Source of the DNA: Callorhinchus milii | Taxonomy: Eukaryota | Assembly (NCBI RefSeq): GCF_018977255.1 | Contig: NW_024705102.1 | Location: 1-64,000 of the forward strand | Direction of reading: 5' to 3' | Length of the DNA stretch: 64,000 bases | Shown: piece after piece, positions 22,051 to 62,100 of the stretch | Numbering within the stretch: the first letter of the stretch is position 1 | How the letters are laid out: each line of letters starts with the position of its first letter | Notes under the pieces: generated by a model | Told to the model about the DNA's origin: nothing | Database searches by the model: none | What the model saw: the letters and a program-made list of their open reading frames with translations, nothing else | Position numbers and translations under genes: made by a program

Positions 22051-22358
22051 GTGGAGTCCTGTAGCTCAGTGGTTAGAGCACTCGCTTTGCAAGCGAGAGA
22101 CCTGAGTTCAATTCCAGGCAGGGCGAAACCTTGGGCAAGTTTCCTTACTCCACACGCCTAATAATAATCCCTTCAAAAAACAAAACAATAATAAAAAAAA
22201 ATGGTCATTTTCAATCTACGACTGTTTGTGGGACATTGCTGTGCGCAATTGGCTGCCGCGTTCGCCCACAAATATAAAGTCAATTCACTTTACAGTGTGT
22301 TCTGTGAAGCGCTTTGGGACGTCCTCCCGACGTGAAAAGCGCTATATCAAATGCAAGG

Positions 22359-22396
<38 letters not shown>
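22051..22396 (+). mobile_element. Young full-length tRNA(Ala)-derived SINE with DeuSINE/AmnSINE-type body and L2-type tail
   Basis: A box tagctcagtgg, TGC anticodon-like loop, B box gagttcaattcc; ctgtttgtgggacattgctgtgcgcaattggctgccgcg; tail aagcgctttgggacgtcctcccgacgtgaaaagcgctatatcaaatgcaagg(att)n. Confidence 0.92.
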
Positions 22397-25590: not shown

Positions 25591-26486
25591 TTAACTTGGT
25601 GACGATTGTGATCCTGTCCCGAGGAAAGTGCGGTCTCTCCACATGTATCACTCGCTACCTGGTGGCCATGGCAGTGGCAGACCTGCTGGTGGTGATCACT
25701 GATGTGATGTGGAAGCGCATTCCAGAAACCTATATGATGCAATTTATTTTCCTGAACATGACTCCTATCTGCTGCATCCGTGAGGTGCTTTTCCATGCAA
25801 CCACCACCTGTTCTGTTTGGCTCACAATCGCTTTCACCTTTGATCGATTTGTAGCAATTTGTCATCAGAAACTGAAAACCAAATACTGCACCGAGAAAAC
25901 AGCGACTGTGGTCATTGTGTCGATCTCTGTGTTCAGCTGTGTGATCAACATACCCTGGTACCTCGAACTTGAACCGCTATTTATAATTAACAACACGCCT
26001 TGGTTTTGTGTTGTGAAAGGAAGTTTTTATTTTCATGGTATGGACCGCTTTTCGTTGTTTCACTGCATTTTACGCCATTTATCCCATTTGTTCTCATTTT
26101 GCTGCTCAATGTTCTGACCATCAGATATATCTTAGTGACCAATGCTGCACGGAGAAGGCTCCGAGGCCACAGCAACGGGGAAAATCAGAAAGATCCAGAG
26201 ATGCAGAATCGTAGGAGATCCATCATTTTGCTGTTTACAGTAACGGGGAGTTTTATATGCTTATGGGTGACGTATGTGATAAGTTATTTTATACCAAGTT
26301 CAATTTACGTATTTTAATTTAACTGGTGATGCAGGTAAATTCCTAAAAGTCGGCAATATGCTTCGACTTTTCAGCTGCTCTACAAACACATGTATTTATG
26401 CTTTGACACAATCCAAATTCAGAAAACAGCTGAAGAATATGGTGAATTACCCATTGTATCAAATATTGATTCTGATCAGATCATAA
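25591..26486 (+). CDS. GPCR-2 exon 2: GPR139-like GPCR, frameshifted as assembled (pseudogene or sequencing errors)
   Basis: Acceptor ttcttgtag|; VNLVTIVILSRGKCGLS..AFTFDRFVAIC..; four 1-nt losses at ~26030-26075 and a 2-nt loss at ~26290 relative to GPCR-3; ends ..CSTNTCIYALTQSKFRKQLKNMVNYPLYQILILIRS TAA. Confidence 0.85.
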
Positions 26487-29281: not shown

Positions 29282-29606
29282 GTGGAGTCCTGTAGCTCAG
29301 TGGTTAGAGCACTCGCTTTGCAAGCGAGAGACCTGAGTTCAATTCCAGGCAGGGCGAAACCTTGGGCAAGTTTCCTTACTCCACACGCCTAATAATAATC
29401 CCTCCAAAAAAACAAAAAACAAAATAAAATTGTCATTTTCAATCTACGACTGTTTGGGGACATTGCTGTGCGCAATTGGCTGCCGCGTTGCCACAAATAT
29501 ACAGTCAATTCACTTTACAGTGTGTTCTGTGAAGCGCTTTGGACGTCTCCCGACGTGAAAAGCGCTATATCAAATGCAAGGATTATAATTATTATTATTA
29601 TTATTA
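29282..29606 (+). mobile_element. Young full-length tRNA(Ala)-derived SINE
   Basis: Nearly identical to 22051-22396, with (att)n tail; inserted in a GA/GT-rich microsatellite. Confidence 0.92.
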
Positions 29607-34039: not shown

Positions 34040-34133
34040 ATGGAAAGAGGGCATTCCCTGTCCCGAGCTGGGCTCAGTCTCACCTTCATATCATTCTGCT
34101 GGATGTTCCTGCAGCTCTGTGTCCTCACTTCAG
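34040..34133 (+). pseudogene. IgSF receptor gene, signal-peptide exon
   Basis: ATG MERGHSLSRAGLSLTFISFCWMFLQLCVLTS G|gtac; 94 nt, phase 1, compatible with the V exon acceptor. Confidence 0.7.
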
Positions 34134-34244
34134 GTACGCATCCACACTCCTGATCTCTCCTCTCTCTGCCTTTCACCCCAGGGTATACCTTGTGCTGTGT
34201 GTTATCACAATCTGCCAATTTGTGCTATTCTATATAAATATAAT

Positions 34245-34530
34245 AATACTCATTGCATTTGATATGGCGCTTTTCACGTCTTCTAGACGACTCAAACCGC
34301 TTCCCAGACGAGAATGTAGAGTGTATTTTCTGTATATTTGTGGGCGAAGTTTGGCAGCGAATTGCGAAGAGCAGTGTCCCACAAACAGTTGTGAATGTAA
34401 ATGATCAATTTATTATTGTTGCTTTTTTACTTGACCGATTATTATCAGGCGTGTGGAATGCGGAAAGTTACCCAAGGTTTCACCCTGCTGGGAAACGAAC
34501 CCAGTTCTCTCTATGTACCTGGATATATAT
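34245..34530 (-). mobile_element. Degenerate SINE
   Basis: ttgcatttgatatggcgcttttcacgtc is the reverse complement of the SINE tail; body cagtgtcccacaaacag. Confidence 0.75.
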
Positions 34531-35862
34531 CAGTTGATCACAGACAGTCTCGCCTCCGAGGCAGAAGTTTGCCGTTAACAGCCACACTCGAGAACACCCC
34601 ACCACCCACAAACACACACAAACACGTCGGTGGGGCTTTGAACTCCCAATCCAGGTTGACCATCCAGCGCAGCGCTGGGGCAAGAGATGGAGCGAGTAAA
34701 TGCAGCATTATCAGAGACGTCAAACCTCACTCACTGAGAGAGAGATAGAGATGTTGAGAGAGAGGGAGAAAGAAAGAGAGCTTCCTGTTCTAGTGAGCCT
34801 TCAGTCACCCTCCCTACACTCCCTGCCCTCCAACCTCCTGATCCCAAACCCCAGCATGTGACCTGTTCATGACGTAGATTGAAGATTTCTCATGGCGCAG
34901 CCAGTAAAAGAGATAGGAATTTCTCTCTCTCTCTCTCTCTCCTTCTCTCTATCCCTCACGCTCTCTCACTCTTTCTCTCTCGGTGTCCTGGCCGAACGAT
35001 AAAATGGCCAGTTCACTTCACGGCTGTTTGGAGGGAGGTGCTGCGTGCCATTAGCTGCCGACTAGGCCCGCAATGCACAGTCACTAAAATTCACAATGTA
35101 TCTTATGAAGCGCTTAGTGTTGTTAAAGGCTCTGTGTGAAAGCTAACTCTTGCTATGATGATTTCAGTCTCCTTTGTACTTCCTTATTTGGCTTTGAGTG
35201 AGGAGAGGAGAGATGGTCTCTCATCATCAAGCTGCTGATCAGACCAACCATGGCACTTCCCCTTACACAGGACATGAGAGGCCGGACTTCTGTCTCCACC
35301 AAACAGTCACCAGCCACAACCACAAACTGCACTTACACTGTGACTTTCACGTCGGGAGGACGTCCCAAAGTGTTAAACGCTCTGGGACGTTTCACTGAGT
35401 GAATGGAGCTATATAAATGCAAAATGTTGCTGTTGTTCAACAATGAGGGGTTTGTACACGAGCTGGGGTTTGGGTTCAGGAGGGTTGGAGGGCAGGGAAG
35501 GCAGGAGGGTGATCGAAGGCAACTCTGTGTATCTCCTTCAACTCTGTATCTCTGTCTTTCTCTGTCCATCTCAATCTGTGTGTCTCTCCCATATTTTTAT
35601 CCTTCACTCTTTCCCTCGCTCTCTCGTACATTTTAACTCTCCGATTTTTCTTCCTCACTTTTTCCTTCACCGACACCACTCTTCGCCTGTCAAAATGTTT
35701 CATCCGCCACCTCTCCCTCTGTCCCTTTCTCTCTCTCTCCCTCTCATTACCTGCATCTCCCGCTTTGGTCTCCCTCATTCTTTCCCTAACTTTCGATTCT
35801 CTCCTTCCTCTCACACTCCTTCCCTCTCTGCGATGTGCTGCTTACCACGACCTACACAATAT

Positions 35863-36210
35863 GTGGAATCCTGTAGCTCATCGTTTGGAGCTCGCGCCTC
35901 ACATACGACAGCTCTGGCTTTAAGTCCTGGTCGGGCGAATTGTTAAGCAAGTGTCCTTTCTCCATACACCAATGTTTACCTTGCAGTTAATAGGGACACA
36001 CTTGTTAGTTGATAAACGGATCACTTTTCCAGGAGTAAAACTTTTCCCGGGGTGAACTGTTCATTCAATCCATTGCTGTTTGTGGGACACTGCTGTTCGA
36101 AAATGGCTCCTAAAATATAAAGTCAAGTCACAGTATATTCTGTGAAGCGCTTTTAGCCACCATGAGAACGTGATAAGACGCTGTAACTATTGCACATATT
36201 ATTATTATAC
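35863..36210 (+). mobile_element. Older SINE with longer central region
   Basis: Head gtggaatcctgtagctca; body attgctgtttgtgggacactgctg; tail gtgaagcgctttta. Confidence 0.8.
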
Positions 36211-36313
36211 GCAGTATGATGTGCTCATGATCAGAAGTGCATGACTTGCGCCGTTTGCTGTTGATTGGGTAAGGAATGCTTCTCAGTCTGTTTCGCTTTT
36301 ATCTCCTATCCAG

Positions 36314-36673
36314 GCTCCGTGGGAAGTGGGAAGAGAGAGAGTTATGTGGTGTCTAACGGCACCAGAACTGTCTTACTGCCCTGCTCTCCTGGGGCTAGGA
36401 CAGGATTCACACACGCTACATGGGATTGGATCACAACCTCAGGGAGAGAAGGATACAGATTGTGTGTGATAACCGAAGACAGATTTGTGTGTAACTCCTC
36501 GCATCACAAGGAGATATCAGTGGCCGATTCCAACGCTTTCTAGTCAGGGAATCTCTCTCTGTTTCTAACACCTACAATGAATCTTGATGGGGAGTATCAG
36601 TGTATTCTTTATAAACAAGAGAAGGAATGTCAAACTGTACACAAATCCATCGTCCATCTGATAGTGTTTCACG
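36314..36673 (+). pseudogene. IgSF V-set domain exon (CD4/LAG-3/G6F-like), premature TAG at 36541
   Basis: 360-nt phase 1-1 exon (cctatccag| ... |gtgagt): TVLLPC..ATWDW..DSNAF*SGNLSLFLTPTMNLDGEYQC..IVHLIVFH; B-strand Cys, C-strand Trp and D-G-x-Y-x-C present. Confidence 0.88.
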
Positions 36674-36699
36674 GTGAGTTACTGCATAGACATGACTGA

Positions 36700-37130
36700 T
36701 CTCTCGACATGTGTATCTCTCTCTGTCTCAGTCATTCTCTCTCACACCCTCTCGTTCTCTGTTCCTCAATCAGCCTCTCCATCTTCATTCCTTCCTTCCT
36801 TCCTTCCTTCCTTCCTTTCTTTCTTTCCTCCTTTTTTTCTTTCTTTCTTTCTTTCTTTCTTTCATTTACTTGATCATTCTTTCATTCATGTATTATTTTT
36901 TTTACCTAGCTCTCTCTTTCTGCTTCTCTGTCGCCCTCTCTTGCAGTCTGTTTCTCTTTCTTTCGGTCTCTCCTCTCTTCTTACTCTCTGTCCTTCATTA
37001 TTTTTCACTGCCTCTCTCTCTCTGTCTCTGTGTCTCTCTCTTTCAGTCCTTCTCTTGCTTTCACTCAATCTATCTTTCAGAGTTACCTTGTCTTCCTGTC
37101 TCTCTGTCCATTTCCTTCTCTCTGTCACTT
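36700..37130 (+). repeat. CT/CTTT pyrimidine-rich microsatellite in intron
   Basis: (CTTC)n(CTTT)n. Confidence 0.85.
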
Positions 37131-37283
37131 TCAAGCTCCGGAAAGGACACATACAGTGCAGTGAGTTGGACAGACCAGTGACAGACACAGACAATCATCA
37201 GACGTTGACTCTTCCTGCTGTAAGTCATGTTGGAATATGTTTTAGTTAATGGTATTGACTACGTGTCTCCTGTCTCTCCGCAG

Positions 37284-37591
37284 TGTCCGTGTCTTCTGAT
37301 AGCTCTCTGACCCGGGGTGGCCGGCTGGCTCTGACCTGCAACATCTCTCACCCTGGTTATTTTAACACCAAACACACAATACATATTGACGGCTCCATCA
37401 CAACAGGGAGAATTGAGGTACAGTGAGTACATGATGGGAACGTGATTATCATTGACACTCGTCACTCTGTGGATCTCAGAAGATTAAACATCAGCAAACT
37501 TGAACACATATATTCTGGATCCTATCGTTATACTTTCAAGATAAAGGTTTCACTCCGTCCTACCAACAAATTAACGTGACTGTCCTATCAG
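37284..37591 (+). pseudogene. IgSF C2-type domain exon, disabled
   Basis: ctccgcag| VSVSSDSSLTRGGRLALTCNISHP..EVQ*VHDG..LNISKLEHIYSGSYRY ..QQINVTVLS |gtgagt; Trp->TGA at 37424, F-strand Cys->Tyr, 308 nt (frameshift). Confidence 0.82.
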
Positions 37592-37719
37592 GTGAGTGTG
37601 AGTGCTCCCAGTGATCGCTCTACACTCTCTTCCTTTCGCTCTCTCGCATTCTCTATGTGTTGGTATCCATCTCTCTTACACTCCTTCTCTGTCACTCCGT
37701 CTTTCTCTGTCTGTATCTG

Positions 37720-37830
37720 TGTGTCTCTGCCGCAGTAATGTGTTAAAAATGATAAAGAAATTCGATAAAAGACAAAGATTTCACCACGACTTTCCAGCAA
37801 ATTAACGTGATTGTTCTATCGGGTCAGTGT
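37720..37830 (+). pseudogene. Internally deleted duplicate of the C2 exon
   Basis: Acceptor-like gtctctgccgcag, then ttccagcaaattaacgtgattgttctatcgggtcagtgtga matching 37560-37600. Confidence 0.65.
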
Positions 37831-37847
37831 GATCTCAGTGATCACTC

Positions 37848-37902
<55 letters not shown>

Positions 37903-38079
37903 TCCATCTCTATCTATCTCTCTTCTCTCCCGCTCTGTCGGTTTCTGCATCTCTGTCAATCTCATTCATTGTCTCTCCCTCTTTTCTTCTACTGTCAGTT
38001 TTTGTGTCGCTCTCTCTTGAAATCTCGGGTATTTTAAAATAACGGTTGAATTTGAGAGGGAAGCTGCACAGAAATTAGA

Positions 38080-38320
38080 CCATCTGTTGGGTTTTCACAC
38101 AAAAAGAGATGTGTGACTCCGGAAGTCTCCCTTTCTCTCTCTGAACGCTGTGCATTATGATTGGATCCATTCACATTGTCCAGACTGAGGTTTGAAATTT
38201 CAGCGTCTCAAGGATTATGGGGCCGAGGCGGGTAAAGGGATTTTAGGTACAGATCAGCCATAATGTAATATAATATTGGAACAGGCTCGAGTGGATAATT
38301 GGTCTCCAACTGTTCATATC
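38080..38320 (+). mobile_element. CR1 3' end fragment
   Basis: aaggattatggggccgaggcgggtaaa..gatcagccat..ggaacaggctcga, as in 1170-1290. Confidence 0.7.
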
Positions 38321-38369
38321 TGCCGGTCGGTTGGTCGTTCGTTCGGTCATTCGTTCGTTCGGCCGTCCG

Positions 38370-38514
38370 NNNNNNNNNNNNNNNNNNNNNNNNNNNNNNN
38401 NNNNNNNNNNNNNNNNNNNNNNNNNNNNNNNNNNNNNNNNNNNNNNNNNNNNNNNNNNNNNNNNNNNNNNNNNNNNNNNNNNNNNNNNNNNNNNNNNNNN
38501 NNNNNNNNNNNNNN
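38370..38514. other. Assembly gap (N run)
   Basis: Run of N. Confidence 1.
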
Positions 38515-39815
38515 CTGTATGTTCGCTGTTTTGGAGGAAGATGCCATGATCAAGGATTGGACAACTTTTCAATTTTAGAATGGGGATAAGCACAGACCCA
38601 GAACTTAAACAGTTGAAAATAATAATTAATAACATGTAAAGATCTGATTTTACCAAATCGTATCTCCACAAGCTGCAGACCTCACAAAACTCTGCAGCTT
38701 ATTTTCTCTCCCGCACCAGATTCCAACAACTTTGCCTTGCTTAACTAGCGCCCCATCCTGCAGTGGCTGAATAGTTTCATTCCCTTGATATGTTCCTTTC
38801 TGCTGATCCATGTAACCATAAATCAATCCATCGATCTATCTCGGGCAAGAGGAAGATTGATCGATAATTCGGGGACTCATCAGATAGATTCAGGTTACAA
38901 AGGGTGATGGATAGAGACATCGAGATTTATGGAACTGACTGATGTGTGGGGGAGATGGATAAAATATTGGGGTGTCCGGGGATGGATTCAGTCATAACAG
39001 CGAGACTGGTAGCGAATCGGGCAGTCACGGATATATTGATATGTTCAAAGGAGATGGACAGACACCTCGGGGCGGCAGGATGTACTGAAACGCGAGCGGC
39101 ATATAAGAGCAGAAGAACATAAGAATTAGGAGCAGGAGTAGGCCATACGTCCCCTCGAACCTGCCCTTCCATTCGATAAAATCATGACTGATCTTCTGAC
39201 CTAACTCAAGATAGAGGCTTGTGGAATCAGGGCATGGATGAGTTGGATTAGGGCCAAGGGTAGAGTTGTGTGTACTCAGGAAGAGGATTGAGGTGTGAAT
39301 TGAGATAGATTGACACCAAGGGGCACCAGGGCATGGACTGAGGTGCGATAGGAAGATAAATAGAGAATTGCTGAGTCCGAGGAAGAACTGAGGTGTGAGA
39401 CAGCGATGGATACAGATTTGGAATCGTCAGGGGTTGGATTTTGGTGTGAGAAGTAGATGGATTGGGACATTGGGGTGTCAGGGTTTGCATTAAGGATTGA
39501 GAGGGAGATGGACTGAGACGTGGGGGTGTCAGGGGATGGATTAAGTTGTGAGCGCGAGATGAATACAGACTTTGGGCAGTCAGTGGATGTATCAAGTTGT
39601 GACAAGGAGAATGATAGCGATTTGGGGGGAGTCAGGATGGGATAAAGATATGCGAATGAGAAGGATAAAGACTTGCGGGATTCAGGTGATGGAATTATGT
39701 GTGAAAGGCGGCAGATTGAGATTGAGTTGTCAGTGGAGAGTATGAAGGTTCAGCATTATTTTAGAGGAAAGTGCCGTGACCAACAATAGGACTACTTGTC
39801 AGTTTTATTTTACAG

Positions 39816-39863
39816 ATATCAAAACCACTCCCCCAACTACAAAGAGCATGCGAACCGCAGGAG
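39816..39863 (+). pseudogene. Candidate IgSF mini-exon 1 (Thr/Pro-rich, stalk-like)
   Basis: ttttattttacag| DIKTTPPTTKSMRTAG |gtaagt; 48 nt, phase 1-1. Confidence 0.65.
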
Positions 39864-40625
39864 GTAAGTTGTTAATAAAAGTAATAATTATTCATCTGTA
39901 ACGTTCTGATTTCCCAACTTTTGCCACCACAAGTTGCAGATCATCCTGAAATCTGCAGCATGTATCCCTTCCAACACCATTCTCCACCAACCTACCCAGG
40001 CTCCACTGGCCCACAATCCTACAGAGGTAAAAGTTCAAAATCTTTATTATCGCCTTCAACGACCTCCACGGCCTTGCTGTTCCCTAACTCTGTGACCCAA
40101 CTCCATATCCACCTGACTGTACACTCCGCTAAGCTGTCTGAGCCCTGCTCCATGCTCCACGCCCTGACTGACGTACCATCGAAGGGCAGATATACAGCCT
40201 CTCCAACTCCACCCTCTGGAACGAAATCCCATAATCCCTTCGCCTTGCTCTCAACCTTCCTTCTTCGAAGGCACATTTCAAGCCCATAGTCTTCAACGAC
40301 GCTTTCAGCCACCCTCCAACTCTCCGAAGCCTTCACATTCTATTACGCCAATACCCTCTTTTCCATCCATCACCAGGCCGTGTCCCAAAATGTGCCTGCT
40401 CAGGGTCTTGGGACGTCCTCATAGATGATTGGAGACATTGGGGTGTCAGTGTATGATTAGTGTGCGAGAGAGAGATGGCTATAACCTTGGGGGTTTCAAT
40501 TGATGGAATGAAGTGTGAGAGGTTGATATTGAGTTGGCAGTGGAGAGCATGGAGGTTGAACGTTACATTAGAGGAACGTGCCATGACCTACAATAAGACC
40601 ACTTGCAATTTTTTTGACATCACAG

Positions 40626-40667
40626 CCTTTCTCAAAACTCCAAAGGGGATGATCGCAGGCGCAAGAG
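40626..40667 (+). pseudogene. Candidate IgSF mini-exon 2
   Basis: cacag| AFLKTPKGMIAGAR |gtaagc; 42 nt; flanks homologous to mini-exon 1. Confidence 0.5.
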
Positions 40668-41145
40668 GTAAGCTATCAGCAGTAACAATAGCCAATAATC
40701 TGAAAATATCTGATTTCCCCACTTTTACCTCCAACAGCTACAAATCATCCAGATCTGTGCAGCTCGTGTGCTCTCCCACAGCAGCTCCATCACACTCACC
40801 CGGCTCCACTGGCTCCCCATCCTGCAAGATGACATTTCAAAATCCTTGTCCTCTGCTTCATGGTCCTCCACGACTTTGCTCCTCCCTCTCTCTGTACCCA
40901 GCTGTCCACTCCCTCCGCTCAGCAAACTATGCCCTTCTCCATATTCCCCGTCCGGCCTGACCACCAACGGCGGGCAGACCTTCAAGCTCTCCATAACCAG
41001 CGTCTGTAACTCCATCCCATATTCACTTTGCCTTGCTCCCACCTTTGCATATTTGAAGGCACATTTAAAGATACTCATCTTCGACCGCGCCTTCAGCCCT
41101 CCTCCAGTCCTCCCTGACTTACACACGCCCTTACTTTTTTTTCAG

Positions 41146-41190
41146 ATATTACAACCATAGCTAAAAAGGCGATGAGCACGGACACAGAAG
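41146..41190 (+). pseudogene. Candidate IgSF mini-exon 3
   Basis: ctttttttttcag| DITTIAKKAMSTDTE |gtaagt; 45 nt, phase 1-1. Confidence 0.65.
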
Positions 41191-42719
41191 GTAAGTTTTT
41201 TAGTATAAGGATAATTAACTCTGTAAAGATCTGATTTTCCAACATCTACATCCAAAAGCTGCAGATAATCCCCACAATCGCGCCTTCAAACACCCTTCAA
41301 CCTTCCCTGCCCTCCACACACCCTTAACCCAATATCCCCAACCCACCATCTCGTACCCACATCCCTTAATGTTCCAAGCCTTGGAACACTCTCGCAACTT
41401 GAAAGTCGTGATGGTAATGTCGTCTTGCATTCTAAAATTTTGCTTCAATAATGTCTTCGCTCTGATCGCTCACAGGCCAGACTAATATGATTTTGAACGG
41501 CATCAGAATCGCGGTGGTGATCCTAATGACGTTTGCCCTCATCCTCGTGATCTATGATGCACTCACGAGATGCGGGGAAAAGCCAGGTGTGGGGACACGC
41601 GTGAAGGAACACGAGTGAGGGGACACGTGTGTGGAGAAACGCGGGTCTTGTTGCCGTGAGCAAAATAGCAACCCGCGGAATATATGACCTGATATTTAAT
41701 CTTATCTGGACAGACAGAGACTCAGAGAAGGACATTGAGGCGTCACAGATTGTTTCAGGATCTTGCTTGCGACACAGATTGAGAGATAGGAGTGTGTTCA
41801 GCTGCTGGTCTCTCCCCATTAAACACACCATCAGAGCCAGGGGAAGGAGACCGTTTATTGTCAGACTGGGAGGAGCTGTTGGGCAGTACGTTTGGAATAA
41901 CGGGACGGATTGAGGTTCGAGATGGATACAGCAACATGTGGGAGTCAGCCGATGCATTGATGTGTGAGACGTTCACGGATAGGATTTTGGTGGAGTCAGG
42001 TGATCGATTGATGTATCAAAAATAGATGGATAGAGACTCGGGGAGTAAGAGAGATGTATCGAGGTGTCACAGGGGTCGGATAGAGATTTGTGGGAGTTAT
42101 GGTATAGATTCAGGCGTGAGTAGTCCACAGCAAGAGACATAGGAGAGCCAAAGCATGGATTGACATGAATGAGACTTGGGTATGTCACGGAATAGAGTTT
42201 GGTGTGAAAGAGAGATGGATCGAGACACGGAGAGCAGGTTTGGATTAAGGTGTCAGGTACAAATAAATAGAGAATTGAAAGCCACCTTGACACAGTGATT
42301 ATTATCTCTCCATATTACTGAAAGGACAGAAGTGCGTTACACGCTCTAACCCTCTTTCCTCTTCTCTACAACTCCACAGCGGACCCTAGAGCCATAAAGA
42401 ACTCAATACCTCTGGATACCTTGAGGAGATCTTCATCGATAGCCTTTAATGATAGAGACCAGGGTGTCTGAGTTACCCGGTAACTTTTCATTCCACCCAC
42501 AAAGTGTATTCCCGTCACAATACGTAAAGTTCTGTGTAACCACATTACTGGCTTAGCTTTTCGCAACACAAACCTCTTGCGTGTCGCACATTCCGGAATA
42601 CAGTGGAAGATGCTTAAGATGCTTAGGTTCCTCCCATTGCTGTGACCATTGGAGGGGACTAATTCACATCGCTGGAGCCACTTGTGAACGGATGGCGATC
42701 CACCCAATCACAGGCATAT

Positions 42720-59189: not shown

Positions 59190-62100
59190 TGAGTCGGGGA
59201 GCGGCGGCAGGACAGCGCGGGGAGGAGCCTGGGCCTACTGACCCAGGTACTTAAACGCGACGCCGGAGCGAGTTTAGCCCCGGGGGGGTGGGGGGGGGGG
59301 GGGGGGGGTAGGGGCGTTGTGGGGGCGGAGCGGGGGATCTGCGACGTCATAGATTAGTTTTTCAGGTGAGTGCGCGCGCAAAAAAAAAAAAAAAAATCCC
59401 ACTGCGCCCCCCCCAGGGCTCGCTCCCGGTCCCCGCGTGCGCACTATGGCTGCCGCTTTGACCCAAGTCCCCTCAACCCCTCCCTCCCTCCCCCCTCCTT
59501 TCTCCCCCCAAACCCTCCCCCCTCTGCATCTCTCCCGCTCTCTCCTCCTCTCTCTCCGTCCCTCTCGTCTTCTATCCCCACTTGACCCTCCCACAACCTC
59601 CCTCTGCTCCAGCCTGGGAATCCTCCGTCGGGCTCACCGCGGCACTCGGCGTTGGCTGTCCAGCAGCAGCCACACCGACTGCCCCATTCCCCACCACACT
59701 CGACACCCACCCCGGACACAGACCCGGGGAGCCAACCTCTCCTCCCTCATCCCCATCCCCCCACCCCTGCCTCACAACCTGGACCCCCTCCCCTCCCACA
59801 CACCCTTCTGTCAACCGCTCCCTCCACATCGGACTGCAAAATGTCCGCTCCCTCTGCAACAAGGCCCTGGTCATCAACGATCTCATCCTTGATGAGAACG
59901 TTGATATCATGGCCTAACGGAAACCTGGCTCACCCCAGGCGACACCTTCCCCCTCACGGAGGCCACGCCACCCGGCTACACCTCCCACCACTTCCCCCGC
60001 CCCAACCGCCGTGGCGGTGGTGTTGCCCTTATCTCAAGGACACCACTTATCCCTATCCCTACTTATCCCTATCCCTATCCCCCTACTCCACTGCCTCTTT
60101 CCCCTCCTTTGAGCACCTCACCCTCTCCCACCCCTCATTCCTCTCCCTTAAAATCCTCCTCCTCTACCGGCCCCCTAAAACCTCTCCCACCTTCATCTCT
60201 GACATTTCAACACTCCTCACATCTCTTTGCCTCTCCTCTGATCGCCTCATCATCCTGGGCGACTTTAACCTACAATTCACACCCTCCTTCTCCATCTCCA
60301 CAGACTTCTCTTCCCTGCTCTCTTCACTCAACCTCTCCTTACACATAAACTCCCCCACTCACAGTCACGGCCACCCACTCGATTTGGTGATCACCCGGGG
60401 CCTCAGTGTCTCGGATGTCACTATTACCGACAAGGCCATCTCTGACCACTGCTTCATCTCCTTCTCCTCCTCCACCCCCCTCCCCACCTCCACCAGACCC
60501 ACCACCATCTTCTACCGCCCTTCGAAGAAGTTACCCGCACAATTCCTAACCGAAGCCTTGGAGTCCTCTGAACTCCTCTCCCTCTGGCCTTCAACCCTCA
60601 CTGACCCCTCTTCTCCTCTCTCCCTCCTCCACAATACGCTCTACTGCACACTCGATAATCTTGCCCCCATCACTTCCCGCAGTGTCTCCTACTCCCGCTC
60701 CCCCTGGTACACCACCCACCTCCGCTTACTGAAAAGCCACGTGCGGGCTGCTGAACGCACCTGTGTCAAATCTGGCCTAACGGTCCACCGACAAATCTGG
60801 CTGGACCTCCTCAAAATTTACCGCTCCACTCTAGCCTCGGCCAAGTCGTCCTTCTGCTCCAGGATAATCCTGGAGGCGAAGAACAACCCCAGGCTACTGT
60901 TTTCCACCACAACCCGACTCCTCCGTCCCCCCCGCCACCCCGCGCAGGTCATCTCGTCCAACCTTCACTGCGAGGAGATGCTGGCTTTCCTTGAATCCAA
61001 CATCAAGGGAATCCGCTCCGCGGTCACTTCCCCTCCAACTTCCACCCACCCCCCACCCCTTCCCTCCCACACTCCGACTCCTACCCATCCTCCCCTACAC
61101 ACCTTCGTACCCGTTTCCCTACCCTCTGTCACTGAACTCATCCTATCCCTAAAACCAACCACCTGCCCCCTTGACCTCATCCCCACTCCACTACTTGTCT
61201 CCCAGCTCCAATTTCTTGCCCCACATATCACTGACATCATCAAGCTGTCCCTCTCCTCTGGCTCTGTCCCCATTCCATTAAAAACTGCCATCATCACGCC
61301 CACCCAGAAAAAACCCTCCCTTGATGCGTCGCAGCTATCAAGCTACCGGCCCATCTCCAAACTCCCCTTTCTCTCCAAGGTCTTGGAAAGAGTTGTGGCC
61401 TCCCAACTGCTCTCTTTCCTTTCCGCCCATTCTCTTTTCGAACCCCTTCCGTCAGGTTTCCGTGCTGCCCATAGCACAGAAACTGCCCTGGTCAAGGTCA
61501 CCAGTGATATCCTGACCATCTGTGACCAGGGCTCCCTCTGGCTCCTCGTCCTCCTCGACCTATCGGCAGCATTCGATACAGTCGACCACGCTATCCTACT
61601 CCACCGCTTGTCCTCCCACCTCAACCTTCAAGGCACTGTCCTTGAATGGTTTAGCTCTTACCTTTCCCACCGTCTTCACTTCGTCTCAACGAATGGCTTC
61701 TCCTCCACCCCCCGTACTGTCTCATGTGGTGTCCCTCAGGGCTCTGTCCACGGTCCCCTCCTCTTCACCCTCTATATGCTCCCCCTTGGTGACATCATCC
61801 GCAAACATGGGGTTAACTTCCACATGTATGCGGATGACACCCAACTCTACCTTTCCTCCTCTACTCTCAACTCCACGACCACCGATGTCCTGACAGCTGT
61901 CTGTCCGACATCGAGTCCTGGACGAGAGAAAACTTTCTTCAGCTCAACGTGCGAAAAACCGAGGCCCTCCTGATTGGCTCACGTCAGCGCCTCCGCACCT
62001 CAGGCGCTGACACCATCAGCATCCAAGGCTGCACTCTCCACCTCTCAAAGCCAGTCAGGAACCTCGGCGTTTTGTTCGACCCTGAGCTGTCCTTTCTCCC

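Follow-up and report, generated by a model that had tools for sequence, protein, structure and literature searches.

Does the immunoglobulin receptor-like gene in this 64,000-nt stretch of DNA (the window) belong with CD4 and LAG-3, and is it still a working gene? The initial annotation had read it as a chain of signal-peptide, V, C2 and short Thr/Pro-rich exons from a dead CD4/LAG-3/G6F-like receptor. The chain is borne out by canonical splice sites that flank the exons, with donors matching at 7 to 9 of 9 positions, but the limit set at 41190 was too early, as a transmembrane (TM) exon lies beyond it. The parts of the gene are as follows.

34040..34133, + strand: signal-peptide exon; phase-1 donor (7/9); 12/29 identities with the leader region of C. 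milii P0002
36314..36673, + strand: V-set Ig exon; premature TAG at 36541; 75 of 119 residues identical to C. milii P0002
37284..37591, + strand: C2-type Ig exon; TGA at 37424 replaces a conserved Trp; 1-nt shortfall near 37543-37545
37737..37822, + strand: degenerate duplicate of the C2 exon 3' end; its spacing across the frameshift site matches that of the main exon
38560..38605, + strand: dead fourth stalk mini-exon, limits approximate; 5' part deleted and donor GT lost (four-unit alignment, blastn)
39816..39863, + strand: Thr/Pro-rich stalk mini-exon, phase 1-1; donor 8/9
40626..40667, + strand: stalk mini-exon, phase 1-1, acceptor apparently moved in frame; donor 7/9
41146..41190, + strand: Thr-rich stalk mini-exon, phase 1-1; donor 9/9
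41476..41586, + strand: TM exon; helix with NxxR at its N-terminal end and Asp at its C-terminal end
42380..42473, + strand: possible last coding exon, unsupported; acceptor only; short tail without a Tyr motif

An uncharacterised C. milii protein with the same junctions aligns to the signal-peptide, V and C2 exons (V 63%, C2 74%), and the V/C2 junction is identical in C. milii XP_007882626.1. Family profiles score 112 bits (V) and 80 bits (C2) at these exons and at most 3.2 bits elsewhere in the six-frame window, so the match is far beyond chance; the 64,000 nt hold one V and one C2 exon. The V exon carries the B/F Cys pair, the C-strand Trp and an additional C'-C'' Cys pair. The C2 exon is identical to P0002 at 64/86 and 12/14 residues on the two sides of a frame break, and its 3'-end duplicate shares 78% DNA identity with 37538-37654 over 117 nt. 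The mini-exons at 39816, 40626 and 41146 are tandem duplicates of a single unit, with a fourth copy near 38.55-38.60 kb. Short stalk exons thus exist as annotated, but only 39816 is clearly Thr/Pro-rich. Five candidates of 90 to 140 nt with strong sites were found in the window, and 41476-41586 alone has a true TM helix (mean hydropathy 2.65 over 19 aa). The last exon is uncertain: 42380..42473 has no homologue match, and read-through of the TM donor would instead add some 19 residues beyond the helix. The neighbours in the window are 7TM GPCR genes.

The window gene is real and dead, a pseudogene with two stops and a frameshift. Both stops of the initial annotation are present; in the C. milii homologue, Q aligns with the TAG at 36541 and W with the TGA at 37424. 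The lesions had been described as substitutions throughout, but the C2 exon is 308 nt long, not a multiple of 3, with one base absent near the A-run at 37543-37545, and the frame change is also visible in tblastn. It follows that the lesions are not exclusively substitutions, and that the C2 end quoted earlier, 'SGSY..QQINVTVL', crosses the break and covers two frames. The Cys-to-Tyr change once counted as a lesion is a family trait, since in alignment A3 Pristis alone, of 13 homologues with a C2 domain, retains that F-strand Cys, and the other 12 have Tyr or Leu in its place. Judging from the alignment, translation may ancestrally have started elsewhere than at the ATG at 34040, as the in-frame Met of C. 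milii aligns with ATA at 34088-34090.

The intact homologues that the initial annotation had thought might exist were found in 14 clusters from 8 chondrichthyan species, annotated as 'uncharacterized' or in similarly generic terms. What had not been foreseen is the main result, a chondrichthyan-wide family of paired receptors. The best family matches of the V exon are in C. milii (63% and 57%), followed by shark and ray proteins at 35-39%, and the window gene groups with C. milii at 100/100 in the tree. A V-C2 ectodomain is common to the family and comes with one of three arrangements for signalling: a YxN+ITAM tail, a tail with twin ITIM-like motifs or, in holocephalans, a polar TM residue. 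ITAM, ITIM and CxC had been named as motifs to look for in paralogues; Cx(C/H) is absent from the homologue tails. Among the 8 ITAM-type V-C2 records, YxN occurs in 7, and the spacing YxxL-x7-YxxL/V also in 7, the eighth having YxxM. Of the 5 twin-Tyr records, 4 contain a strict ITIM, and the ITAM-type tails fit the ITIM pattern too. In Heptranchias, P0052 has an ectodomain identical at 137 of 150 positions to that of the ITIM-type P0049, yet carries an ITAM tail, an apparent tail swap in one species of the kind expected of paired receptors. Literature searches turned up no description of the family, and this G6F-like-related group of apparently activating and inhibitory members is apparently undescribed.

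The likeness to CD4 and LAG-3 is greatest in structure. Foldseek, a check suggested at the outset, ranked LAG-3 D1-D2 first with each of the two homologue models (E 1.5e-14 and 1.8e-13). For CD4 D1-D2, VIA gave Z 15.6 with 179 aligned at rmsd 2.7, and Z 14.5 with 180 aligned at rmsd 2.6; nectin-1 D1 tied at 15.2 and 14.9, respectively. In the two PDB profile searches, contactin-4 scored highest over the whole sequence and LAG-3 over single stretches. The AlphaFold models of the two homologues contain one continuous strand over the V/C2 junction (126-140 and 184-201), a feature reported as rare and as typical of CD4/LAG-3 (PMC10768021, section 3.6); this G-A strand and the fold match belong to the homologue models rather than to the window copy. 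The WxC motif defined for C2 strand F (PMC10768021) is absent, as both the window and every C2-bearing homologue have Tyr where the motif has Trp, and the Cys is retained in 1 of 13. Neither Cx(C/H) nor (F/Y)xxL(D/E) occurs in either possible window tail or in the homologue tails, and none of the 20 V-exon hits looked up among 36 is named CD4 or LAG-3. The homologues have two Ig domains, against V-C2-V-C2 in CD4 and LAG-3 and two or three domains in CD4-2. With two domains, no WxC and no CxH/FxxL tail, the family is not CD4 or LAG-3. The initial annotation had likewise taken the gene for a relative, not an orthologue, but its argument from the unsplit V exon does not hold, because shark CD4 and LAG-3 also lack the D1 intron (PMC10768021, section 3.2). 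It had also called the status of CD4 in cartilaginous fish debated; this is largely settled (PMC10768021), the present gene bears no direct relation to it, and our finding leaves shark CD4 status unchanged.

The closest named relative in sequence is the G6F-like protein of ray-finned fish, and the assignment to a CD4/LAG-3/G6F-like relationship stands. With the window V exon as query, phmmer gives 36 hits, one of them Polypterus g6f-like (E 2.9e-4). With profile A2, two G6F-like proteins, comparators chosen by similarity to the query, reach best-domain scores of 59.8 and 49.4 bits, the next of 15 fish comparators 43.1 and mouse LAG-3 (8dgg) 30.7; hhalign gives 98.4% for the link. In an Atlas query with a Heterodontus member, g6f-like clusters came second and fifth by features and took rows 1-2 by structure. 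The segment between strands E and F is 19 residues long in 17/17 chondrichthyan and 4/4 G6F-like V domains; it has 20 residues in 28/29 other printed segments and, counted by eye, in 10/10 shark CD4/LAG-3 D1 domains. The phylogeny recovers a clade of the family, G6F-like and single-V genes, but its support of 94/93 lies under the starred threshold and carries long-branch warnings, in trees built without CD4/LAG-3.

We consider it likely that the window holds a recently inactivated holocephalan member of a chondrichthyan multigene family of type I V-C2 Ig receptors, a family within the CD4/LAG-3/G6F clan and nearest to G6F-like. Against this stands the reading that the gene is functional, its lesions being assembly errors or a null allele of one haplotype, or that it yields a short secreted product. 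The frameshift does sit in an A-run of an assembly that contains N gaps, the splice sites are intact, and the terminal branch of the window gene (0.24) is barely above that of intact C. milii (0.18). We nevertheless judge this highly improbable, since three independent lesions are spread across two exons, the start codon may be lost, a stalk exon is dead, the degenerate C2 duplicate shares the spacing at the frameshift, and the first stop comes ahead of the V-domain E and F strands. No more credible is a holocephalan CD4 or LAG-3 that has been truncated or has degenerated, in the manner of two-domain teleost CD4-2, and that works as an MHC class II co-receptor. It would account for the fold searches and for the LAG-3 stretches in the profile searches, and CD4-2 does occur as V-C2 plus hinge, but two-domain CD4-2 is found only in ray-finned fish, and sharks have bona fide, separate CD4 and LAG-3, with a CD4 fragment known in holocephalans (PMC10768021). 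Domain count, WxC, tail motifs and E-F length together largely refute orthology with CD4 or LAG-3.

An independent chondrichthyan paired-receptor family of DICP-, MDIR- or CD2/SLAM-like kind, with a merely generic V-C2 likeness to G6F-like and LAG-3, is a more serious contender, albeit an unlikely one. Identities to G6F-like are only about 23%, the tree support is modest as noted, the Atlas query with another member's ectodomain returned generic V-set clusters only, and YxN+ITAM tails and NxxR TMs recur across unrelated families (PMC4536121). Moreover, members in two species, catshark LOC119974549 and sawfish LOC127587250, are absent from the MHC-chromosome gene lists of those species (PMC10751288 supplement). 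Weighing on the other side are three partly independent G6F-like signals, namely the profile scores, Atlas and the common E-F deletion. No match list with names contains DICP, MDIR or CD300, and DICP D2 domains retain the F-strand Cys that the family C2 usually lacks.

How might the intact protein have worked? NxxR with an acidic C-terminal residue marks TMs that associate with FcR-gamma (PMC6557307, PMC2413239), the acidic residue being described as a feature in PMC6557307. In C. milii P0002 the motif is NxxH, with His in place of Arg, and the acidic residue is Glu, where the window has Asp. NxxR with the acidic end arises in 0.16% of whole-exon shuffles, and NxxR in 6.6% when the 10 residues before the helix are shuffled. 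Shuffle tests against the C. milii TM (15/1000) and that of Heterodontus P0051 (9/1000) place the window TM no closer to C. milii. The window shows no signalling tail motif of its own, with tail profiles at 2.6 bits or less. The intact protein would have displayed its V and C2 domains as a rigid rod like CD4 D1D2, on a short Thr-rich stalk subject to alternative splicing, and the NxxR arginine would have recruited an ITAM adaptor of FcR-gamma or CD3-zeta type, which would make the receptor an activating one. Among shark paralogues, those with twin ITIM-like tails would be its inhibitory counterparts, and those with YxN+ITAM tails would activate directly, like teleost G6F-like. The most probable setting is blood cells (thrombocytes or leukocytes), with birth-and-death evolution driven by pathogens or matrix, which would be expected to leave dead activating copies.

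Zebrafish G6F-like activates thrombocytes on collagen. If the G6F-like link holds, family members are candidates for the collagen-activated thrombocyte receptor of sharks and chimaeras, and could show what the two-domain V-C2 ancestor of CD4/LAG-3 in jawed vertebrates was like. They would also inform the age of the NxxR TM/ITAM-adaptor module, as a 2014 screen did not find FcR-gamma in shark genomes (PMC4016189). A bolder version, which we regard as rather unlikely, is that cartilaginous fish have in this family their thrombocyte receptor system of G6F/G6b type, that it retains the single V-C2 unit whose duplication gave rise to four-domain CD4, LAG-3 and G6F-like, and that holocephalans swapped the ITAM tail for an NxxR TM and so for GPVI-style FcR-gamma signalling; the NxxR/adaptor module would then date to the base of the jawed vertebrates. 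The pseudogene exposes a family almost wholly unnamed in public annotation, and the few paired activating/inhibitory families known in cartilaginous fish gain one more, in which tails have apparently been swapped.

Compared with CD4 and LAG-3, the family has the V-C2 rod, the continuous G-A strand and, on the homologue models, the best solved-structure matches, but it lacks D3-D4 and differs in its shorter E-F segment and TM type as well as in WxC and tail. DICP of bony fish and MDIR of skate likewise comprise Ig receptors in clusters, with pseudogenes alongside inhibitory forms and activating ones that have a charged TM. DICP has canonical B/F Cys in D1 and D2 plus DICP-specific Cys, whereas the window gene and 12/13 homologues lack the F-strand Cys of domain 2; MDIR is described as CD300/TREM/pIgR-like. 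Activating receptors with an NxxR TM include LILRA, GPVI, NKp46, Fc-alpha-R and OSCAR as well as Xenopus XFL, SLAM-like and ILR, in cited work that covers mammals, birds and amphibians only. The window gene has in common with them NxxR at the TM start, an acidic residue at the end and a short motif-free tail, but it joins these to a V-C2 G6F-like ectodomain in place of LRC/FCRL C2 domains, and neither the window gene nor C. milii has the LRC-type DYT motif before the TM.

The nearest comparison remains G6F-like (g6fl) of ray-finned fish, which, like the family, has an E-F segment of 19 residues and, two positions ahead of the site of the C2 F-strand Cys, Tyr instead of Trp. Its YxN+ITAM tail layout (PMC3528668) is that of the shark ITAM-type members, though the dead window copy has no such tail. 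The family has two Ig domains where teleost G6F-like has four, and mammalian G6F also has fewer (PMC3528668). Mammalian G6F (LY6G6F) is encoded in the MHC, in contrast to the catshark and sawfish members, which do not appear in the MHC-chromosome gene lists. The C. milii homologue model is without the stalk exons of the window gene, and the family, unlike G6F-like, is a multigene one with ITIM-like and NxxR/NxxH forms.

The Ig receptor copy in the window is a pseudogene, and its exon chain can be followed from the signal peptide to the transmembrane (TM) segment.

34040-34133, forward strand, signal-peptide exon, placed by splice-site inspection
36314-36673, forward strand, V exon, family V profile 112 bits
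37284-37591, forward strand, C2 exon, family C2 profile 80 bits
39816-39863, forward strand, phase-1 mini-exon, placed by splice sites
40626-40667, forward strand, phase-1 mini-exon, placed by splice sites
41146-41190, forward strand, phase-1 mini-exon, placed by splice sites
41476-41586, forward strand, TM exon, outside the range of the initial annotation

The initial annotation described this chain within 34040-41190; the exons were found there, and the chain runs past that range to the TM exon. Donors match 7 to 9 of the 9 consensus positions, and the internal acceptors have a pyrimidine content of 65-88%. Elsewhere in the six-frame window, the V and C2 profiles built from homologues reach at most 3.2 bits, compared with 112 and 80 bits at the exons. 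Both strands of the window hold ten strong-site, stop-free, phase-symmetric candidates of 36-60 nt, three of which are the mini-exons; these are tandem copies of a single exon-intron unit, with a fourth, donorless copy at about 38.55-38.60 kb, and are therefore not independent. The C. milii model, which contains no stalk exons, has exactly the same V/C2 junction and C2 end. No second V or C2 paralogue, ITAM exon, or ITIM exon was found within the window, and no homologue backs the possible last exon at 42380. Searched alone, the window signal-peptide, V, C2, and TM peptides matched no Pfam family, the exons gave a best PDB E-value of 0.09 (a chance lipase match), and the TM exon had no PDB match. 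A word-index search for longer proteins with the exons alone returned 45 candidates, none significant, a lower bound since the same index also missed the C. milii homologue P0002.

Inactivation is seen at several sites. The two stops of the initial annotation are present, a TAG at 36541 in place of the Gln found in C. milii and a TGA at 37424 in place of the C-strand Trp of homologues, while a frameshift in C2 had been overlooked: the 308-nt exon is one base short near 37543-37545, where the frame of the C. milii match shifts. The 3' end of the C2 exon has a degenerate duplicate at about 37737-37822 with the same spacing as the main exon at this site, making a single sequencing error less likely. 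The start codon may be lost too, because an in-frame Met of C. milii aligns with ATA at 34088-34090. The Cys-to-Tyr change, previously counted as damage, does not qualify, as the C2 F-strand Cys is absent from 12 of the 13 C2-bearing homologues in the homologue alignment. The window branch (0.24) barely exceeds that of intact C. milii (0.18), which is consistent with recent inactivation.

The pseudogene sits in the spacer between the arms of an inverted segmental duplication (19.2-26.8 kb versus 59.2-52.3 kb, in pieces, 75-79% identity). Three rhodopsin-family 7TM GPCR genes are also present, presumably similar to the GPR139/142-like genes that expanded in cartilaginous fish.

13585-12644, reverse strand, GPCR gene with an open 314-aa reading frame
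25593-26450, forward strand, frameshifted GPCR gene, one of a duplicate pair
53513-52597, reverse strand, frameshifted GPCR gene, one of a duplicate pair

Copies of about 330 nt at 22051-22383 and 29282-29606 are 95% identical with a tRNA-Ala-like head, and older copies lie near 16.7, 27.3, and 34.2 kb; this element is probably a young tRNA-derived SINE. Degenerate LINE copies occur at about 59.4-63.5 kb (endonuclease domain 59905-60345) and 30.5-31.9 kb, with short fragments of this element in the stalk introns. One stalk intron contains a 51-nt tandem repeat (39426-39610, 3.6 copies, 73% identity), and similar purine-rich sequence recurs near 41.9-42.3 kb.

Intact paralogues had been suspected, and relatives are indeed found elsewhere. 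A phmmer search of 1.84 billion representatives with the V exon gave 36 matches; names were looked up for 20, and the remaining 16 were left out of use. The best single-domain matches are C. milii XP_007882626.1 (P0002; 63%) and A0A4W3GJ61 (57%), followed at 35-39% by proteins of Pristiophorus, Heptranchias, Heterodontus, Mustelus, and Pristis. Two profile searches brought in Scyliorhinus canicula, S. torazame, and further Heptranchias and Heterodontus genes, for a total of 14 V-C2 clusters in 8 species. The top-scoring V-exon match, P0001, and similar long teleost proteins were rejected as relatives because tandem V repeats inflate their summed scores; their best single domains reach 11-27 bits. 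Family members are named 'uncharacterized' throughout, bar one 'JAM-C-like' and one 'Ig-like domain-containing', and some shark members have optional short Thr/Pro/Ser-rich stalks. Gene clusters are suggested by several Heterodontus records on a single 44-Mb contig and by three Heptranchias clusters on another of 15.7 Mb. The window clusters with C. milii at 100/100 support. Intron sequence at 39529-39594 and 35217-35260 matches the N-termini of two C. milii gene models; these N-termini are spurious, the models having wrong first exons, and the C. milii gene may have a tandem paralogue upstream. Together, the grouping and the intron matches make a holocephalan source for the window most likely. 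We found no description of the family in the literature, and subscription papers, supplements, or Ohashi 2010 could hold one; in the accessible text of the papers searched, the six accessions of the case do not appear, and the three shark papers checked for G6F mention it in reference lists only. This chondrichthyan V-C2 paired-receptor family is apparently undescribed.

By motif readings on predicted proteins, in which ITAM tails fit the ITIM pattern as well, there are three signaling designs. The first is a YxN + YxxL-x7-YxxL/V tail, with strict ITAM spacing and YxN each in 7 of 8 records; five ITAM-type records form a single lineage conserved across sharks (100/100 on V domains, 93/98 on V+C2). 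The second has two tyrosines about 26 residues apart, and four of the five records contain a strict ITIM. In the third, holocephalan TMs carry NxxR (window) or NxxH (C. milii), a far-end acidic residue, and a short Tyr-free tail. Heptranchias P0052 has an ITAM tail, though 137 of its 150 ectodomain residues are identical to ITIM-type P0049, a tail swap that is the pattern expected of paired receptors. A single-V gene whose locus number adjoins that of the V-C2 ITAM gene is represented by P0073 (catshark LOC119974550), P0074 (Mustelus LOC144508212), and P0075 (S. torazame), and may be a G6b-like or second G6F-like lineage. The TM and ITAM tail of the two genes are 85% and 91% identical within species and 63-64% between species, suggesting concerted evolution of the signaling exons.

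How the holocephalan receptor would have signaled may be read from its TM segment. The V-C2 ectodomain would form a rigid rod on a variable Thr-rich stalk, and the receptor would be of the activating type. Receptors with NxxR have been shown to associate with FcR-gamma in the accessible parts of two reports (PMC2413239, PMC6557307), and by this analogy it is somewhat probable that the TM Arg couples the receptor to an ITAM adaptor. The adaptor may be CD3-zeta or a still-unannotated FcR-gamma, since a 2014 screen, as far as its accessible text goes, found no FcR-gamma in sharks (PMC4016189). Shuffling the ten residues that precede the helix produces NxxR alone in 6.6% of cases, and shuffling the entire exon produces the whole TM pattern in 0.16%. 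The DYT motif is missing before the window TM, which is not measurably closer to the C. milii TM than to one shark TM. As for cell type and ligand, the accessible text on zebrafish G6F-like describes a thrombocyte/collagen link (PMC3528668), which by analogy makes thrombocytes and collagen a lead. Alternatively, the family may serve pathogen-driven leukocyte recognition.

Fold and sequence point to different parts of the CD4/LAG-3/G6F clan. All structure and Atlas results come from intact Heterodontus, Heptranchias, and C. milii homologues, the window's own sequence being left out. AlphaFold models of the Heterodontus and C. milii members (mean pLDDT 73.7 and 73.3; ectodomain blocks 68-95) both link V and C2 by one continuous strand. 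LAG-3 D1-D2 is the top Foldseek match of both models (E 1.5e-14 and 1.8e-13, respectively); the highest target-normalized TM scores go to CD4 D1-D2 (up to 0.79 and 0.78). In a second comparison, VIA, CD4 D1-D2 reached a Z-score of 15.6 with 179 aligned residues at rmsd 2.7 for one model, and of 14.5 with 180 aligned residues at rmsd 2.6 for the other; nectin-1, a single-domain match, tied with it. In PDB profile searches, the best single stretches are LAG-3 and the best summed score is contactin-4. No G6F, G6F-like, DICP, or MDIR label occurs in the fold-search listings, so these searches cannot rank those families.

By sequence, G6F-like proteins appear closer to the family than CD4/LAG-3. 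The V exon's own phmmer matches include the g6f-like protein of Polypterus and a comparable one of Albula. Against the family profile, the best domains of the two G6F-like proteins, comparators chosen by the query, score 59.8 and 49.4 bits, ahead of the next-best of 15 comparators (43.1) and of mouse LAG-3 8dgg (30.7); one of the two, P0024, is annotated 'hypothetical' and owes its G6F-like label to 32% identity with the Polypterus protein over all domains. Hhalign of the family with these two gave 98.4%. An Atlas query with an ITAM-type member placed g6f-like at ranks 2 and 5, with LY6G6F and G6b-B lower; a second, ectodomain-only query was uninformative. The E-F segment, a length character defined in this analysis, is 19 residues in 17/17 chondrichthyan and 4/4 G6F-like V domains, and 20 in 28 of the 29 other segments listed (up to four from each protein, with no match in one protein) and, counted by eye in the accessible supplement of PMC10768021, in 10/10 shark CD4/LAG-3 D1 domains. 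Albula P0036 was rejected as G6F-like on its 20-residue segment and low scores. Among the trees, all built without CD4, LAG-3, mammalian G6F/G6b, DICP, and SLAM, the V-domain tree joins the family, G6F-like, and single-V neighbors with an unstarred support of 94/93 and raises long-branch warnings. Against the G6F-like placement, the window V is only about 23% identical to G6F-like. Polypterus g6f-like alone has weak generic PDB matches only.

The earlier claim of a relative rather than an orthologue of CD4/LAG-3 holds, because there are two domains, no WxC, and no CxH or FxxL tail. Its argument from the unsplit V exon fails, since shark CD4 and LAG-3 also lack the D1 intron (PMC10768021, accessible part of section 3.2). 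The initial observation is partly confirmed, with corrections, and its interpretation is partly supported. The locus is a pseudogene of a chondrichthyan V-C2 family in the CD4/LAG-3/G6F clan, nearest to G6F-like.

Most family members have no canonical disulphide in domain 2 of the homologue alignment: the B-strand Cys is gone in five ITAM-lineage or Pristis members and the F-strand Cys nearly everywhere. Several shark members have a G-strand Cys instead, reminiscent of a B-G bond reported in tetrapod LAG-3. Mammalian G6F, to go by the title of Ohashi 2010, is reportedly MHC-encoded. In contrast, the MHC-chromosome gene lists in the accessible part of PMC10751288 include neither the catshark nor the sawfish member, which speaks against the G6F-like reading. 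With CD4 and LAG-3, the two modeled members share the continuous V-C2 strand, described as rare and CD4/LAG-3-typical in the accessible part of PMC10768021 (section 3.6).
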